Source: a virus
Length of the DNA stretch: 64,000 nt
Strand: one strand, 5' to 3'
IMG/VR virus record: IMGVR_UViG_3300040801_004314
Span: 1-64,000 of that record
Shown here: one piece after another, positions 8,077 through 13,355 of the stretch
How positions within the stretch are numbered: the stretch's first letter is position 1
Layout: each line of letters opens with the position of its first letter
Notes under the pieces: generated by a model
The model's input: the letters and a program-made list of their open reading frames with translations, nothing else
What the model was told of the DNA's origin: nothing
Database searches by the model: none
Position numbers and translations under genes: made by a program

Positions 8077-8586
8077 ATGAAACGTATTCAAAATTTTGAA
8101 GCCCATAGAGGTAATAAAGTACAAGAAACTAAAGCACAAGAAACTAAAGTACAGGAAGCTGTAATTGAGGTTGAAGATACTTATAAAGTAAGAACAAGTA
8201 TTGATGTTCCTAAGAGCTTTGTAAATGCTTACATAAAAAAGGTTAAGGATGAGACTGGTGAAGATATCAGCCAATTGTTTGGTGATTTTGATATTGCAGA
8301 AGAACTAGTAAAACATGTAACTGATAAATATCTCGATAATGATATTATTTCTGCTAGAGCTTTAACTGGTGGTGAAGAAGAGGAAGAGGAAGAGGAAGAA
8401 GAAGTTCAACCTGAAATGAAAGAAGAAGAGGAAGCACAGGCACAAGAGGAAGAACAGGAAGAAGAACAGGAAGAAGAACAGGAAGAAAAAGCTGAAATGG
8501 AAGAAGAAGCACAAGAAGAAGGTGATGATGATTTCGAAGATGTTCAGGACTTAGACGAAGAAGAAGATGAAGATCTTCCTATCTAA
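8077..8586 (+). CDS. Highly acidic protein, possible prohead core/internal protein
   Basis: Poly-Glu C-terminal half, N-terminal MKRIQNFE motif, and a late-type promoter at about 8044. Confidence 0.55.
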   Translation: MKRIQNFEAHRGNKVQETKAQETKVQEAVIEVEDTYKVRTSIDVPKSFVNAYIKKVKDETGEDISQLFGDFDIAEELVKHVTDKYLDNDIISARALTGGEEEEEEEEEEVQPEMKEEEEAQAQEEEQEEEQEEEQEEKAEMEEEAQEEGDDDFEDVQDLDEEEDEDLPI

Positions 8587-8612
8587 AAATAAAAACAAAT
8601 AAACATATATAA

Positions 8613-8647
8613 TAAAAAAATCCAGATAATTTATCTGGATTTTTTTT
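8613..8647. terminator. Bidirectional rho-independent terminator
   Basis: AAAAAAATCCAGATAA-T-TTATCTGGATTTTTTT between convergent genes. Confidence 0.75.
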
Positions 8648-8681
8648 GTCTTTACTTTAAATATTATAATTAATTTAAAGG

Positions 8682-8984
8682 CTATTCCTTAAGCTTTTCT
8701 ATTTTTCTATCTATATCCTTTATAGAAAATTCTACCCATTCAGGTATATTAATCTCATCAAAAGATGGTAAGTCACTTGGATAATCTTTTGATAAGAATT
8801 CATTCAAGTCAACGTCATTCATGTAGTCTTCAGCCCACGTTGATTTTAGATTTCGATAAGCTACATCAAATTCAATAAGGTGTTTTTTTGTTTTCTGTAG
8901 AAAATTAATTTCATCTTGGTTAGTAGCTTCCCCACCTAAATCCTCGTTTACATTTGTGTATTCTTTAAATAGTTTAATTGCCAT
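8682..8984 (-). CDS. Hypothetical protein (MAIKLFKEY N-terminus)
   Basis: ORF track; late-type box upstream. Confidence 0.6.
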   Translation of the reverse strand: MAIKLFKEYTNVNEDLGGEATNQDEINFLQKTKKHLIEFDVAYRNLKSTWAEDYMNDVDLNEFLSKDYPSDLPSFDEINIPEWVEFSIKDIDRKIEKLKE

Positions 8985-9031
8985 ATTATTATTTCTTTTT
9001 TATTATATATTAAATATTTTTCATAGAAAAC

Positions 9032-9063
9032 CTTGTGAGAACTATTTATTTGTTTTATATTTG
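9032..9063 (+). promoter_or_regulatory. Bacteroidota sigma-A type promoter driving the tracrRNA/CRISPR locus
   Basis: (C)TTG at 9032-9035, a 20-nt spacer, then TATATTTG (TAnnTTTG -7 box) at 9056-9063, just upstream of the anti-repeat. Confidence 0.7.
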
Positions 9064-9067
9064 CAGT

Positions 9068-9199
9068 GTATTAATTGATTACCTTAACACAACCAACGAT
9101 AGCTTAGGCTATCGGGAGTGAATTTCAGTAGATTAAGTAGAGCAAGACATACATTGGCTCGATATACAGTAACTCCACTAACCTACACTAGTAGGATTT
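9068..9199 (+). ncRNA. tracrRNA copy 1 (stand-alone)
   Basis: Anti-repeat GTATTAATTGATTACCTTAACACAAC (9068-9093) is complementary to the first ~26 nt of the CRISPR repeat with a bulge. It is followed by hairpins CGATAGC-TTAG-GCTATCG, GGAGT...ACTCC and CCTAC-ACTA-GTAGG. Confidence 0.85.
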
Positions 9200-9300
9200 A
9201 AAAATTAAGGTAAAAGTTCTTTTTTTATTGATTAAAAAATGATTTCTAATAGTCATTAATGTGGTTAACTTACTAACAACCAATTATTTATAAGAGGTAG

Positions 9301-9645
9301 GTTGTGAAAGGTAATCATATTAGTACTATTCACAACGGTATTTAATAAACTAGCTATGGATGTTATGTTGTGAAAGGTAATCATATTAGTACTATTCACA
9401 ACTATGGAAATCCCGACCCGAACAAGCCAGAGGTTGTGAAAGGTAATCATATTAGTACTATTCACAACAAAATGCAAGATATACTAACTAGAGAGCTAGT
9501 TGTGAAAGGTAATCATATTAGTACTATTCACAACATAATAGAAATGTAAAGTCCACCTCATATAGTTGTGAAAGGTAATCATATTAGTACTATTCACAAC
9601 AAATTTAATAATTGATTGCAGTGATTGTCTGTTGTGAAAGGTAAT
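9301..9645 (+). CRISPR. Type II CRISPR array: five identical 36-bp repeats, a truncated sixth, and five 30-nt spacers
   Basis: Repeat GTTGTGAAAGGTAATCATATTAGTACTATTCACAAC at 9301, 9367, 9433, 9499 and 9565; partial GTTGTGAAAGGTAAT at 9631. Spacers at 9337-9366, 9403-9432, 9469-9498, 9535-9564 and 9601-9630. Orientation is inferred from the anti-repeat pairing. Confidence 0.97.
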
Positions 9646-9770
9646 ATAATAATACCTTAACACAACCAACGATAACTTATGTTATCGGGAGTGAATTTCA
9701 GTAGATTAAGTAGAGCAAGACATACATTAGCTCGATTTAGTAACTCCACTAACCTACTTTGGTAGGATCT
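9601..9770 (+). ncRNA. Putative natural single-guide RNA (spacer 5 + truncated repeat + loop + tracrRNA copy 2)
   Basis: GTTGTG-A-AAGGTA (9631-9643), a 9-nt loop ATATAATAA, TACCTT-AA-CACAAC (9653-9666), then a near-identical copy of the tracrRNA 3' hairpins ending CCTAC-TTTG-GTAGG (9753-9766). Confidence 0.8.
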
Positions 9771-9790
9771 AAAAATAAATACATATTATA

Positions 9791-9821
9791 CTTGTTATAT
9801 TAATAAATAGTGTTATATTTG
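9791..9821 (+). promoter_or_regulatory. Bacteroidota sigma-A type promoter upstream of cas9
   Basis: CTTG at 9791-9794, a 19-nt spacer, then TATATTTG at 9814-9821. Confidence 0.65.
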
Positions 9822-9854
9822 TCAAAAATAAATAATAACTAAAAATAAAATATT

Positions 9855-12800
9855 TTGTCAAGTAACAACTCACTTCTGGATAATTTTTTAAAAAATAAAA
9901 ATATTGATAACATCATGGGCATTGATGTTAATAAAAATAACTACGTCTCTTATTTAGTTATTGATGGTGAGCATAATCAATACTTCAAAATATTTAATGA
10001 AAAGAAAAAAACTACTGTCAGTAACACACTGAAAAATAAAAAGAAAAGAAAAGAAAACTTTTTCGACACCTCTAGCAAAATATTAAAATCCAGTCACACA
10101 AAACTTCATAAACACCGAAAAGAATTAAAGGGAGATTATAAATTCAACCCAGTGTATTTAGCTCATTGCCTAGTTAATAAAAATGAGCTTCCTAAAATGA
10201 ACTTAACTGTTGATGGGGTCTCTTACTCAGATGAAGATGTTGCATTCTATATTATATCTTTGTGGATGTTGAACAGCAGGGGCGCACAATCTCAAAAGTC
10301 AAAAATAAAATTAAGTAAAGAAGATCAAAAAGTAACAAAGAAACTTTCTAAAAAGGGTGTAAAAGCAATAGGTAAAAGAAAGTTAGAAGATATTATAAAA
10401 TCAATACCAAATGATTTAGAAGATCACAAGGTTAGTTATTATCCTACTATCAGGTCTAATAAGATAAATATGATGTTTAGCCCTAATGATTTAAGTTTTT
10501 TTAATCAAAATGATAACAAAGAGTTTTATATTGATATCATAAGTAAATTAGGTGGTAAATATTCTAGGAATGCTAGAAAATTAGCTAACATTATATTTTA
10601 CAATAAAAACCAGAATGAGAGAAAAAATGAAAAGAGAGGTGACTGTTCTTTTTTGAATCATAAAAAAGAATCACATAAAAGGGGTGATAAAAATAATCCT
10701 TATCAAGAATTAAGAATTACTCACTTGAAATTAAACACCTCTAACGAAAAAGATATTAAAGAACTCAATGATGAGTATAAAGATAAGTTTATAAAAAAGC
10801 TTACAGATAAGTCAAATAATGGGTTTATCAATAGTGTTATCATAGATATCTTAAAGTATGATCCGTTTTTTGATAACGATGAGCTATTTTTTAAAAAGGG
10901 TAAAAATAGCATTTTGAACATAGATAATGTAGCAGATATATTTTCTTCAATTTACAATTCTTACGAGACAGGCAAGCCATTAAAGTCATTTAAAGAGTTT
11001 AATTTGACAGCATCCAAGAAAGATTCAATATTAGAATATTTTGAAGAAAGTGGTAGTGTGGTGAGTGATGTTTCTGATAAATTTGCCAAGATATACTCTA
11101 ACTTTTTATTTAAGGGCAGAATCAATAGAACAGGCAATATGCTTAACTTATTAGTCTTGAATAAGGTCTATTCTACTGATGAGGGATATGATAAAAATAG
11201 AGCATGTATATCTAATAAGAAAATCAATGATGTTAAATCTTTTATGGAGAAAGATCTAGGTCTTCTAAAGATTAGCGAAATAGATAATATAATAAATGAT
11301 AAGAGCATTAGGTTTAGGTCTAATGGTTTGGAAGCTAAATTAAAGTTCGAAATTCAGAATTATATAAACAGTGTTTTGAAAAAAAAATGGACTGATCCTA
11401 ACGTACAACAAAAAATGTTTTTAATGGTAGATAATATAATGAATGTTATATTTTCGGATAATCCAAAAAACAGAACTCAACTCATACAAGGAATTGAAAA
11501 AATAAGAAATATAGATTATGTTATAGAATCTACTAGAGCTAAGTCTAACAAGGAAGAGAATGCATTCGAACATATTTTCAATAGAGTGATTAAAAATGTG
11601 TCTCTAAATAAATATCCTTCTAATAATTATAGTAGGTCTAGAATCTTATATGAAAGTGGTGGCATTGATGTTTATGACGGTAACCCTTTATCACTTGAAG
11701 ATACTGATAAAGACCATGTTGTTCCACGCAGTTGGGTAACTTCATATGGTAATAATATATCCAATTTAGTTCCGTGTAAACATTCATTAAACAAGGAAAA
11801 GGATAATAACCTTCCTTTATCTAGTGACTTAAATTTGAACAAGTCTGGATTTAAAAAGCAATTGAATAATATCTATGGAACATCCAGAATTGATGATATT
11901 TGTGAGGATATTTCTATTTATATAGAAGAAGAACACGGAGGTAAACTTTATAATAATGACGTTTGTTATATTGATAGCCATTTGGACTTTTACCATAAAG
12001 AAACTGATAAAAAAGGCAATATAAAGACTAATGGCATATTTAAAAAAATAGACAAATATGACCTTAGAAGACATTTAGTATCATATTTTAATAAAAAAAT
12101 GAACATTTTGTTAATGGAATCGAGTAAAGATGAGTTAGAGATGGAGTTTGGATCTTCTCTACTGTCTAATATTTCTCACTCGGTCTCTGCACTAACTGAT
12201 ATCCTAACTGATGTTTTCGGTGTTGATAGAAGTAGAATAAGCTACACACCAAGACAATTTTCTTATATAGGGAAAATTAGAGGTAAGAGAATATTAGATT
12301 TACCAAAAGATAGAGATTGGAATCATCATCACATGGTAGACTGCTTTTTGTTATTATTGTTAAAACATAGAAAGAATGTATTCCACTCAAAGTCTACTAG
12401 GGAAACTAAATATAAACCTAACTTAAATGATGTTAGTGATATGTATAATTATTTTAAAGAGATGGATATTTATATAAATGACGATAAGGATATTGAGGAT
12501 ATAATAAATGTTCTTAAAATGGTCGAAAATAATACTAAGCCTACATTTAAAAAGGTTAGATCTTTTAAAAAGAGAGTTTCCGTAGATGATAATGGTAAAA
12601 AAACAACTACTATGTCACCACGTGGTAAAATGTTCGGGGATACAATATACGGTTCTTATAAAAAGGATGGCGTTGTGATGTCTAAAGGGTATGAGGTCAA
12701 GGGAATTGTTTTGGATAAGGATAAAGATGGGAAGGATATAAAACAGGACAATGTAATAGTTAAGAATCCAAACACTGGTGAAGACTTCATTTTAGATAAG

Positions 12801-13355
12801 AAGGATAAAAAAAATAGTAATTTACGTAAAATGCCTGAAGGTGCTTATATTGAAAACACTACTAATAAAGAGGAAAATTTATACTTGGGAAAGAAAGTCT
12901 CAAAAAATAAATATCATTCAAAAAAGAAGGGAAGTAATGCATCTCATTCAGTATATTTTCATTTAAATGATAAAGGGAAAGCTGTATCAAAAGTGGTAAA
13001 TAAGTTTAGTATGATAGCAAAAAAAGATGAGAATGGGAATGTTGGCGTTAAGTGCAGTGAAGAAATAAAACGTGAAAATAATATCCCAAGTGATGCTATT
13101 AGAATATCAAAAAAGGATGTATTTAATTTTAGTGGGTATATACATAATTTTAAGGGAGTTGATTATAAGATGAACTCTCTTTATAAAATAAATGCTATAA
13201 ACAAAAATATAATAGTAACTGAAATAAGTACTAATTTAAGCTATAAAACCAAAGAAGAGGAAGCTGAGTTTCTAGTTAGTAATAAAATTGCATTTAGTAT
13301 TTCTTATGAGAAATTCTATAAACATTTTGGTAAAACCATTCATTTAGTAAAATAA
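9855..13355 (+). CDS. cas9: Divergent Cas9 (type II-C-like), 1166 aa; start uncertain (TTG at 9855 or ATG at 9915)
   Basis: RuvC-I IMGIDVNKN; REC motifs RG.QSQK and IIFY...RGDCSF...KRGDKNNPYQELRI; DPNVQQ; RuvC-II YVIESTR; HNH DVYDG...DKDHVVPRS...NLVPC...LNKEKDNNLP; RuvC-III KDRDWNHHHMVDCFL. Adjacent to the array and tracrRNA. Confidence 0.9.
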   Translation: MSSNNSLLDNFLKNKNIDNIMGIDVNKNNYVSYLVIDGEHNQYFKIFNEKKKTTVSNTLKNKKKRKENFFDTSSKILKSSHTKLHKHRKELKGDYKFNPVYLAHCLVNKNELPKMNLTVDGVSYSDEDVAFYIISLWMLNSRGAQSQKSKIKLSKEDQKVTKKLSKKGVKAIGKRKLEDIIKSIPNDLEDHKVSYYPTIRSNKINMMFSPNDLSFFNQNDNKEFYIDIISKLGGKYSRNARKLANIIFYNKNQNERKNEKRGDCSFLNHKKESHKRGDKNNPYQELRITHLKLNTSNEKDIKELNDEYKDKFIKKLTDKSNNGFINSVIIDILKYDPFFDNDELFFKKGKNSILNIDNVADIFSSIYNSYETGKPLKSFKEFNLTASKKDSILEYFEESGSVVSDVSDKFAKIYSNFLFKGRINRTGNMLNLLVLNKVYSTDEGYDKNRACISNKKINDVKSFMEKDLGLLKISEIDNIINDKSIRFRSNGLEAKLKFEIQNYINSVLKKKWTDPNVQQKMFLMVDNIMNVIFSDNPKNRTQLIQGIEKIRNIDYVIESTRAKSNKEENAFEHIFNRVIKNVSLNKYPSNNYSRSRILYESGGIDVYDGNPLSLEDTDKDHVVPRSWVTSYGNNISNLVPCKHSLNKEKDNNLPLSSDLNLNKSGFKKQLNNIYGTSRIDDICEDISIYIEEEHGGKLYNNDVCYIDSHLDFYHKETDKKGNIKTNGIFKKIDKYDLRRHLVSYFNKKMNILLMESSKDELEMEFGSSLLSNISHSVSALTDILTDVFGVDRSRISYTPRQFSYIGKIRGKRILDLPKDRDWNHHHMVDCFLLLLLKHRKNVFHSKSTRETKYKPNLNDVSDMYNYFKEMDIYINDDKDIEDIINVLKMVENNTKPTFKKVRSFKKRVSVDDNGKKTTTMSPRGKMFGDTIYGSYKKDGVVMSKGYEVKGIVLDKDKDGKDIKQDNVIVKNPNTGEDFILDKKDKKNSNLRKMPEGAYIENTTNKEENLYLGKKVSKNKYHSKKKGSNASHSVYFHLNDKGKAVSKVVNKFSMIAKKDENGNVGVKCSEEIKRENNIPSDAIRISKKDVFNFSGYIHNFKGVDYKMNSLYKINAINKNIIVTEISTNLSYKTKEEEAEFLVSNKIAFSISYEKFYKHFGKTIHLVK

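Follow-up and report, generated by a model that had tools for sequence, protein, structure and literature searches.

A phage-borne Cas9-like locus with two tracrRNA-like segments, one of which may serve in cis as a natural single guide

Streptococcus pyogenes produces a natural single guide for its type II-A CRISPR system, tracr-L (Workman et al., bioRxiv 10.1101/2020.05.21.102756). It is the long isoform of a single trans-activating CRISPR RNA (tracrRNA) gene and acts as a repressor through an 11-nucleotide (nt) guide to the cas9 promoter (bioRxiv 10.1101/2020.05.21.102756). Repeat-like regulators are widespread (bioRxiv 10.1101/2023.03.03.530964), and the vsgRNAs encoded by phages mimic the guide of the host, adjoin anti-CRISPR genes and inhibit the Cas9 of the host (Feussner et al., bioRxiv 10.64898/2026.06.01.729453). 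Predictions have placed alternative tracrRNAs beside cas9 or close to where the array ends (Dooley et al., bioRxiv 10.1101/2020.09.02.279885), and it has been proposed that the anti-repeat derives from a repeat and can be reset when the two recombine (Faure et al., PMC6546382). The locus described here, in which a tracrRNA-like segment occurs twice around a CRISPR array with a gene for a Cas9-like protein just 3' of it, lies in positions 1 to 64,000 (the window) of IMG/VR virus record IMGVR_UViG_3300040801_004314. That record is a linear, metagenome-assembled virus contig of 100,664 base pairs (bp) with about 29% G+C, estimated by CheckV to be about 22% complete, and is a fragment of a very large phage.

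The plus strand of the locus carries, in order, tracrRNA copy 1, a leader, an array of five repeats and five spacers, a terminal repeat that has been remodelled and runs into tracrRNA copy 2, and the cas9-like gene, which begins 147 nt 3' of copy 2. Its principal features are the following.

9068 to 9093, plus strand: long anti-repeat of copy 1, pairing with repeat positions 1-25
9080 to 9197, plus strand: tracrRNA copy 1, with predicted helices P1 (9097-9103/9108-9114) and P2 (9115-9119/9172-9176) and the further helices P2b (9140-9143/9157-9160) and P3 (9182-9186/9191-9195)
9301 to 9600, plus strand: CRISPR array of five identical 36-nt repeats and four intervening 30-nt spacers
9601 to 9630, plus strand: spacer 5, 23% G+C, the guide of a putative single-guide RNA
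9631 to 9666, plus strand: chimeric terminal repeat of 36 nt that keeps the register of the array and is identical to the consensus repeat at 26 of 36 positions
9653 to 9768, plus strand: tracrRNA copy 2, continuous with the terminal repeat, with predicted helices P1 (9670-9676/9681-9687) and P2 (9688-9692/9743-9747) and the further helices P2b (9713-9716/9730-9733) and P3 (9753-9757/9762-9766)
9915 to 13355, plus strand: divergent Cas9-like gene, 1146 amino acids from the ATG at 9915, in a frame that is open from 9855

The reading favoured here, which taken as a whole is considered moderately probable, is that the phage carries a minimal type II CRISPR-Cas9 locus in which the tracrRNA has been duplicated and its work divided, copy 1 acting in trans and copy 2 acting in cis as a natural single-guide RNA. 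Canonical type II dual guides resemble it in that a 5' anti-repeat and the 5' part of the repeat form a lower stem, a bulge and an upper stem, followed by a nexus-like hairpin and further 3' hairpins, and in that the RNA is encoded beside cas9 and the array. Unlike the canonical systems, the phage locus has its tracrRNA twice, has repeats that form hairpins, lacks a U-tract terminator and an Rfam match, has no cas1 gene that could be found in the 100-kb record, and encodes an effector too divergent for the curated Cas9 models. With tracr-L it shares a genome-encoded single guide, in which a segment derived from a repeat is folded back in cis against the anti-repeat ahead of the full scaffold; its single guide differs from tracr-L in being a separate second gene copy at the end of an array, with a full 30-nt spacer and no promoter match found in the record. 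Like the vsgRNAs, copy 2 is a compact, phage-encoded natural single guide (as modelled) with a Cas9 scaffold, whereas here the RNA matches the phage's own array and its own adjacent Cas9, and is accompanied by a second copy that would act in trans.

CRISPR-associated IscB systems offer a further parallel, because there, too, the last spacer and repeat are continuous with the (omega-RNA) scaffold, which makes the last spacer a ready-made single guide. The effector of the phage locus, however, has 1146 residues and an apparent recognition lobe, as against the 400-500 amino acids of IscB, and a trans copy coexists with the fused one. In contrast to the predicted alternative tracrRNAs, both copies here have one scaffold, at 92% identity, and the anti-repeat of copy 2 occupies the 3' half of the slot of the terminal repeat. 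An anti-repeat within a terminal repeat is thus found as a direct example rather than being deduced from phylogeny. What sets the locus apart is the combination of a catalytically intact-looking Cas9 of the phage's own, a full-length spacer wired in cis through a chimeric repeat, and a 92%-identical trans copy.

The duplication itself is confirmed by the alignment. The two segments, of 116-118 nt, both lie on the plus strand on either side of the array, and across 119 alignment columns they differ by nine substitutions and one 2-nt insertion or deletion (indel). A BLAST search with copy 2 against the whole 100,664-bp record returned only these two places (92% identity, E 1e-43), and repeat finding recovered 87 nt at 94% and 41 nt at 88% identity between the copies. 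The alignment and the BLAST search thereby bear out an initial annotation of the sequence, which had reported a segment of about 115 nt at 9080-9197 and again at 9653-9768. Homology begins exactly at the anti-repeat common to both copies and stops about 12 nt past the last hairpin.

Folded separately, the scaffolds of copy 1 and copy 2 gave minimum free energies (MFE) of -26.1 kcal/mol (z -2.68) and -26.7 kcal/mol (z -3.28), respectively, and the four helices P1, P2, P2b and P3 are common to the two MFE folds. P1 is predicted to be a 7-bp nexus-like hairpin that stands 3 nt after the anti-repeat in both copies; P2 (GGAGU/ACUCC) is predicted to close a central domain within which P2b (GAGC/GCUC) forms, and P3 (CCUAC/GUAGG) to be the terminal 5-bp hairpin of each copy. 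In these models, both segments have the anatomy of type II tracrRNAs, i.e., a 5' anti-repeat, a nexus-like hairpin and two more helical elements. The anti-repeats, the array and the Cas9 gene are all on the plus strand, and the geometry on that strand, 5'-spacer-repeat paired to 5'-anti-repeat-scaffold-3', is that of all Cas9 guides.

The differences between the copies mostly preserve the structure. Two of the nine substitutions make up a compensatory change of the sixth pair of P1 from G:C to A:T (A:U in the RNA), so that hairpin 1 reads CGATAGC-TTAG-GCTATCG in copy 1 (9097-9114) and CGATAAC-TTAT-GTTATCG in copy 2 (9670-9687). Four more fall in hairpin loops, one in that of P1 and three in that of P3, where the loop changes from ACTA to TTTG while the stem CCTAC/GTAGG is kept. 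The other three are found at a bulge beside GCUC, after P3, and at 9164 beside the indel, on the 3' strand of the central domain. All 21 core pairs are left unbroken, and no substitution falls inside the 14-nt anti-repeat; GGAGT/ACTCC and GAGC/GCTC are the same in both copies. The initial annotation had described the two forms of hairpin 1, the conserved stem and altered loop of the last hairpin, and the two unchanged helices in the same terms, and the alignment agrees with it on each.

The likelihood of such a pattern arising by chance was estimated by placing nine substitutions at random and, alternatively, by placing six independent events, with clustered changes counted once. The probability that no core pair would be broken and the 14-nt anti-repeat left untouched was 0.008 for nine substitutions and 0.04 for six events; that of at least one compensatory pair was 0.045 and 0.02; and the joint probability of an undamaged structure with a compensatory pair was 0.001 and 0.002, respectively. 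The structure-preserving pattern reflects the descent of both sequences from functional RNAs, and need not mean that both are at present under selection in this genome; copy 2 may have accumulated its differences in a related phage that had no other tracrRNA, before being recombined in. A central block of 43 nt is identical in both copies, predicted loops included, and gene conversion or protein contacts would fit this block as well as RNA pairing does.

The join between the array and copy 2 is precise. The terminal repeat keeps the 66-nt register and, as every repeat does, starts with GTTGTG and ends with CACAAC; its 5' 15 nt are those of the repeat, whereas over its 3' 14 nt it is identical in sequence to copy 1's anti-repeat. 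The initial annotation had credited copy 2 with only the 14 nt of anti-repeat needed for a duplex in cis. These are present, but they do not follow a merely truncated repeat; they are the 3' part of a 36-nt, in-register terminal repeat. In cis this unit is predicted to form 6 bp, a 1x2 internal loop and 6 bp (12 bp in all), closed by a 9-nt loop (-10.2 kcal/mol), and in shape this fold matches the base of the duplex formed in trans, where 6 bp and a 1x2 internal loop are likewise followed by a helix. Over 9631-9772, hairpin and scaffold fold together at -37.7 kcal/mol (z -4.20), with a centroid equal to the MFE structure. As modelled, the layout of 9601-9772 is that of an engineered single-guide RNA with spacer 5 as its guide.

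It is proposed that copy 2 would be transcribed as the 3' end of the array, that the terminal repeat would fold back on its own anti-repeat and run straight into the scaffold, and that spacer 5, by virtue of this continuity, would be a hard-wired single-guide RNA with no need of copy 1 or of RNase III. The sole promoter-like site near copy 2 (9625-9653) would start transcription inside its anti-repeat, which fits expression of copy 2 by read-through from the array. On the minus strand between copy 2 and cas9 (9797-9861), two strong promoter-like sites, TTGACA-18-TATTAT (11 of 12 positions matching) and TTGACA-17-TAATAT (10 of 12), are directed into copy 2 and the array; they could produce antisense transcripts or be chance occurrences in palindromic TTGTCAA motifs.

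Copy 1 is built differently at its 5' end. Its anti-repeat extends over about 26 nt, of which copy 2 shares only the last 14, a difference noted in the initial annotation and recovered by both cofolding and alignment. The duplex of copy 1 with the repeat has 24 bp over these approximately 26 nt: a first helix of 6 bp is separated by a 1x2 internal loop from one of 10 bp, and that in turn by a 1-nt bulge from a last one of 8 bp. Pairing of copy 1 with the repeat was calculated at -54.4 kcal/mol by cofold and -26.6 kcal/mol by duplexfold, as against -43.0 and -15.0 kcal/mol for copy 2. One promoter-like site precedes it:

9033 to 9061, plus strand: promoter-like TTGTGA-17-TATATT, matching at 9 of 12 positions, which would start copy 1 near 9068

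The region holds 13 promoter-like sites, compared with 7.9 +/- 3.1 in shuffled sequences, and the site at 9033-9061 is weak support in DNA this rich in A+T. Copy 1 would be a free-standing, trans-acting tracrRNA, whose duplex with the 5' part of each full repeat would be long enough for host RNase III and which would, for that reason, mature and load the guides from spacers 1-4. No RNase III gene was found in the 100-kb record, and so the enzyme of the host would be needed. The sequences, their pairings, the helices common to the copies, the pattern of differences and the Cas9-like character of the adjacent gene are what the analysis shows; that both RNAs are transcribed, processed, loaded into Cas9 and in present use is what we infer from these arrangements.

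The protein that would use these guides was recognised as Cas9-like by several comparisons. The Cas9-type HNH_4 domain was the sole Pfam domain seen and is present in all six members of the effector family, a tiny family for which a search of 1.84 billion cluster representatives gave six proteins at E up to 1e-3. Residues D4 (RuvC-I), E538 (RuvC-II), H601 and N626 (HNH), and H805, H806 and D809 (RuvC-III) are invariant in the six-member alignment and fall in Cas9 order, with about 530 residues between D4 of RuvC-I and E538 of RuvC-II. The ten nearest clusters in a protein atlas all belong to Cas9, Csx12 or Cas9d families (scores 0.96-0.97), and the top 13 matches in a Foldseek search of the PDB were all Cas9 chains, the best being SaCas9 (8jft_A, E 1.5e-5); the AlphaFold model used was poor (pLDDT 51.7) and served for this ranking only. 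The effector is therefore taken as a very divergent Cas9 with a recognition lobe and catalytic residues that look intact from the sequence.

Relatives of the effector are few, five or six in number. Its closest relative (P0002) has 84% identity, P0003 has 47-49% and P0004 to P0006 have 32-38%, while P0008 is a cluster member; their genes are all on short Logan or ENA contigs. Protein-based scans of IMG/VR and of GTDB genomes found no relatives, and neither did tblastn and blastn searches of GenBank phages. A scan of JGI metagenomes yielded one relative locus (L003, contig Ga0222708_1003185), whose protein has 41% identity to the effector. Searches for related loci by their RNA elements gave 60 single hairpin matches to the repeat-end pattern in IMG/VR, with no arrays, and no exact match to the tracrRNA core. 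Over 8500-10500, Rfam (E up to 1) contributed no family apart from two matches at chance level.

The array itself bears on how such a locus could have arisen. Its repeats start at 9301, 9367, 9433, 9499 and 9565, with a period of 66 and a sixth in-register unit at 9631-9666. The consensus repeat is predicted to fold as a hairpin (-10.3 kcal/mol) in which a 1x1 loop separates 8 bp from 4 bp, and its ends are complementary (GTTGTGAA...TTCACAAC). Hairpin repeats with complementary ends are unusual for type II systems. As the repeat is itself a hairpin, the ends of repeat and anti-repeat are alike, which would make recombination or interconversion between them easy. Each repeat also contains a promoter-like TTGTGA-16-TACTAT (8 of 12 positions matching), whose -35 hexamer is the same as that of the site 5' of copy 1; such sites could allow transcription to begin at every spacer, as happens in type II-C systems, although they are weak in AT-rich DNA.

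A third anti-repeat-like stretch lies in the leader:

9247 to 9283, plus strand: degenerate third anti-repeat-like stretch, 17-20 nt before the first repeat

This stretch ends in ...AACAACCAA, resembling the start of the tracrRNA. Its local alignments had shuffle p values of about 0.007 against the reverse complement of the repeat and about 0.01 against the 5' end of copy 1. A duplex between the stretch and the repeat was calculated at -22.3 kcal/mol, and the predicted fold lays it onto repeat 1. It may be the remnant of the 5' end of a third tracrRNA, or a cis element that masks an unused first repeat. The chimeric terminal repeat, the hairpin repeats and the leader remnant together suggest that the locus is turning over by recombination between repeat and anti-repeat, a process that has been proposed as common and as a route for the origin and 'reset' of anti-repeats (Faure et al., PMC6546382). 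Outside the locus, the best anti-repeat-like site of the record (90871-90906; duplex -29.0 kcal/mol) lies inside a 422-amino-acid minus-strand open reading frame with no scaffold after it, and is probably due to chance.

The spacers differ in composition: spacer 2 (9403-9432) has 53% G+C in a phage of 29% G+C, and spacer 5 only 23%. The target of spacer 2 is probably no close relative of the phage. Spacer 5 (9609-9623) and the 5' flank and distal anti-repeat of copy 1 (9061-9079) have two 8-mers in common, TAATTGAT and TTGCAGTG, in swapped order. Homology between spacer 5 and this flank was considered and rejected, as local alignment did not rise above shuffled sequences (p = 0.2); the shared 8-mers may be chance, or a hint that spacer 5 was not acquired as a spacer. 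Immediately upstream of the locus, a 169-amino-acid open reading frame (8077-8586) has a Glu-rich, low-complexity tail encoded by GAA/GAG repeats (8377-8566) and matched no Pfam or PHROGs family; the small open reading frames flanking the locus had no family matches either.

Several observations count against a division of labour between two working tracrRNAs. The searches for targets came up empty for spacer 5 and for the other spacers alike: the spacers had no match in their own 100-kb record and nothing credible among GenBank phages (best E = 3), spacers 5 and 2 had no match in IMG/VR, and spacer 2 had none in GTDB genomes. The 3' (seed) end of spacer 5 had no match of at least 10 nt elsewhere in the 100,664 bp, which amount to about 22% of the genome, and its seed-end matches of 8-9 nt were at chance level and far from the locus. 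The minus strand folds about equally well (z -2.9, compared with -2.7 to -3.3 for the plus strand), and because the folding energies of the strands are similar, the geometry of Cas9 guides was the only basis on which the plus strand was chosen. Apparent 'terminators' on the minus strand at hairpin 1 were taken as a by-product of that hairpin. On the plus strand, no Rho-independent terminator was detected in 8900-10000, and neither copy ends in a recognisable intrinsic terminator; past its last hairpin, copy 1 continues with AUUUAAAAAUU and copy 2 with AUCUAAAAAUA, with no U-tract terminator in either. A very large phage may use other termination signals.

The comparison of the copies also has limits of its own. 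The helices tested were defined on the very two sequences being compared, and two sequences are too few for covariation statistics. Furthermore, the A-to-T change at 9164 and the indel at 9166-9167 remodel the inner fold: copy 2 is predicted to gain a 7-bp AUUAAGU/AUUUAGU extension of P2b that copy 1 cannot form. The initial annotation had held that the differences preserve structure and that both copies are therefore under selection as RNA. The first part is upheld for the core, where 21 of 21 pairs are kept, but not for the inner fold, which the change at 9164 and the indel alter. The second is supported in part only: it is favoured by the significant avoidance of the shared helices and by the compensatory pair, and is weakened by the remodelled inner helix and by the possibility that the copies diverged before they were brought together. 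As to the effector, its divergence is such that sequence and profile searches of NCBIfam, PADLOC, PHROGs and the PDB gave no match. In the relative locus L003, the 1161 bp upstream of cas9 contain no array or tracrRNA, only small ordinary open reading frames, which indicates that the layout is not universal in the family; judging from that sequence, the RNA genes of this relative must lie elsewhere.

The same pattern of differences would be seen if one copy, more likely copy 2, were a non-functional or redundant relic, gained by recombination with a related phage locus or between repeat and anti-repeat; the structure-preserving changes would then date from a time when the copies belonged to separate lineages, each with no other functional tracrRNA, and would not be due to joint selection in this locus. 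The CACAAC ends common to repeat and anti-repeat and the in-register chimeric repeat do resemble a recombination product, the decayed third anti-repeat in the leader shows that such pieces turn over here, recombination of this kind has been proposed to be common (Faure et al., PMC6546382), and the identical 43-nt core could reflect gene conversion. However, at least one disruptive change would be expected among the nine substitutions of a decaying copy (the probability of none being 0.008-0.04), whereas copy 2 keeps all core helices together with the exact geometry of the guide-duplex base, and it is placed where read-through of the array yields a complete single guide. A relic is considered unlikely on this evidence. 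It is distinctly unlikely that copy 2 is instead a regulatory single guide of the tracr-L, scaRNA or vsgRNA kind, by which Cas9 would bind a partially matching site without cutting it and repress its own promoter or a host gene. The architecture is that of tracr-L, with a repeat-like segment folded on the anti-repeat of a full scaffold (bioRxiv 10.1101/2020.05.21.102756; 10.1101/2023.03.03.530964), compact single guides are known in phages (bioRxiv 10.64898/2026.06.01.729453), and spacer 5 is fixed at the leader-distal end of the array and is AT-rich like the phage. Set against this, the guide is a full 30-nt, in-register one and not a short guide of 11-15 nt, a phage with its own Cas9 has no need to sequester that of the host, and the seed end of spacer 5 has no match of at least 10 nt in the 100-kb record, with the qualification that this is about 22% of the genome and that the host is not identified.

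An assembly artefact, in which two strain variants of a single tracrRNA-array locus were joined into a chimera, was also weighed, as the record is a linear and incomplete metagenome contig, and repeats and strain variation are classic causes of mis-joins. Collapse or duplication by an assembler would, however, give identical copies, and these differ by 8%; their left junctions are distinct, a long anti-repeat behind a promoter-like site in one case and a precise in-register fusion to the array in the other, and unique sequence flanks both sides. The 8% divergence, together with homology that ends close to the RNA boundaries, makes a duplicate created by the assembler very improbable, in keeping with the initial annotation, which had argued against misassembly. 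The division of labour, with copy 1 in trans and copy 2 in cis, is thus retained as the preferred explanation.

A tentative and rather doubtful extension of it is that this rare phage Cas9 lineage preserves a living intermediate between omega-RNA-like single-RNA guides and dual-RNA guides, with both copies used by one Cas9. On that supposition, the hairpin terminal repeat would serve as repeat and anti-repeat at once, with its scaffold in cis, and a duplicated scaffold copy with an extended anti-repeat would have taken over the trans role for the other spacers. To judge by its sequence, the TTGTGA-16-TACTAT inside the penultimate repeat might even allow the single guide to be made without processing. 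If both copies are used by one Cas9, this would be the first natural system with a single and a dual guide side by side.

Should both RNAs be in use, the locus would represent a natural Cas9 system with a hard-wired single guide beside a conventional dual guide, and would extend the compact single guides invented by phages to a phage whose own nuclease works with one. It would also provide a secondary-structure model and two natural scaffold variants for an almost unknown Cas9 family of six clusters. Even if copy 2 were only a relic, the locus would still be a clear record of recombination between repeat and anti-repeat. If the favoured reading is true, the locus would illustrate how a terminal repeat can give rise to an anti-repeat or fuse with one, a scenario that had previously been inferred from comparative genomics only.

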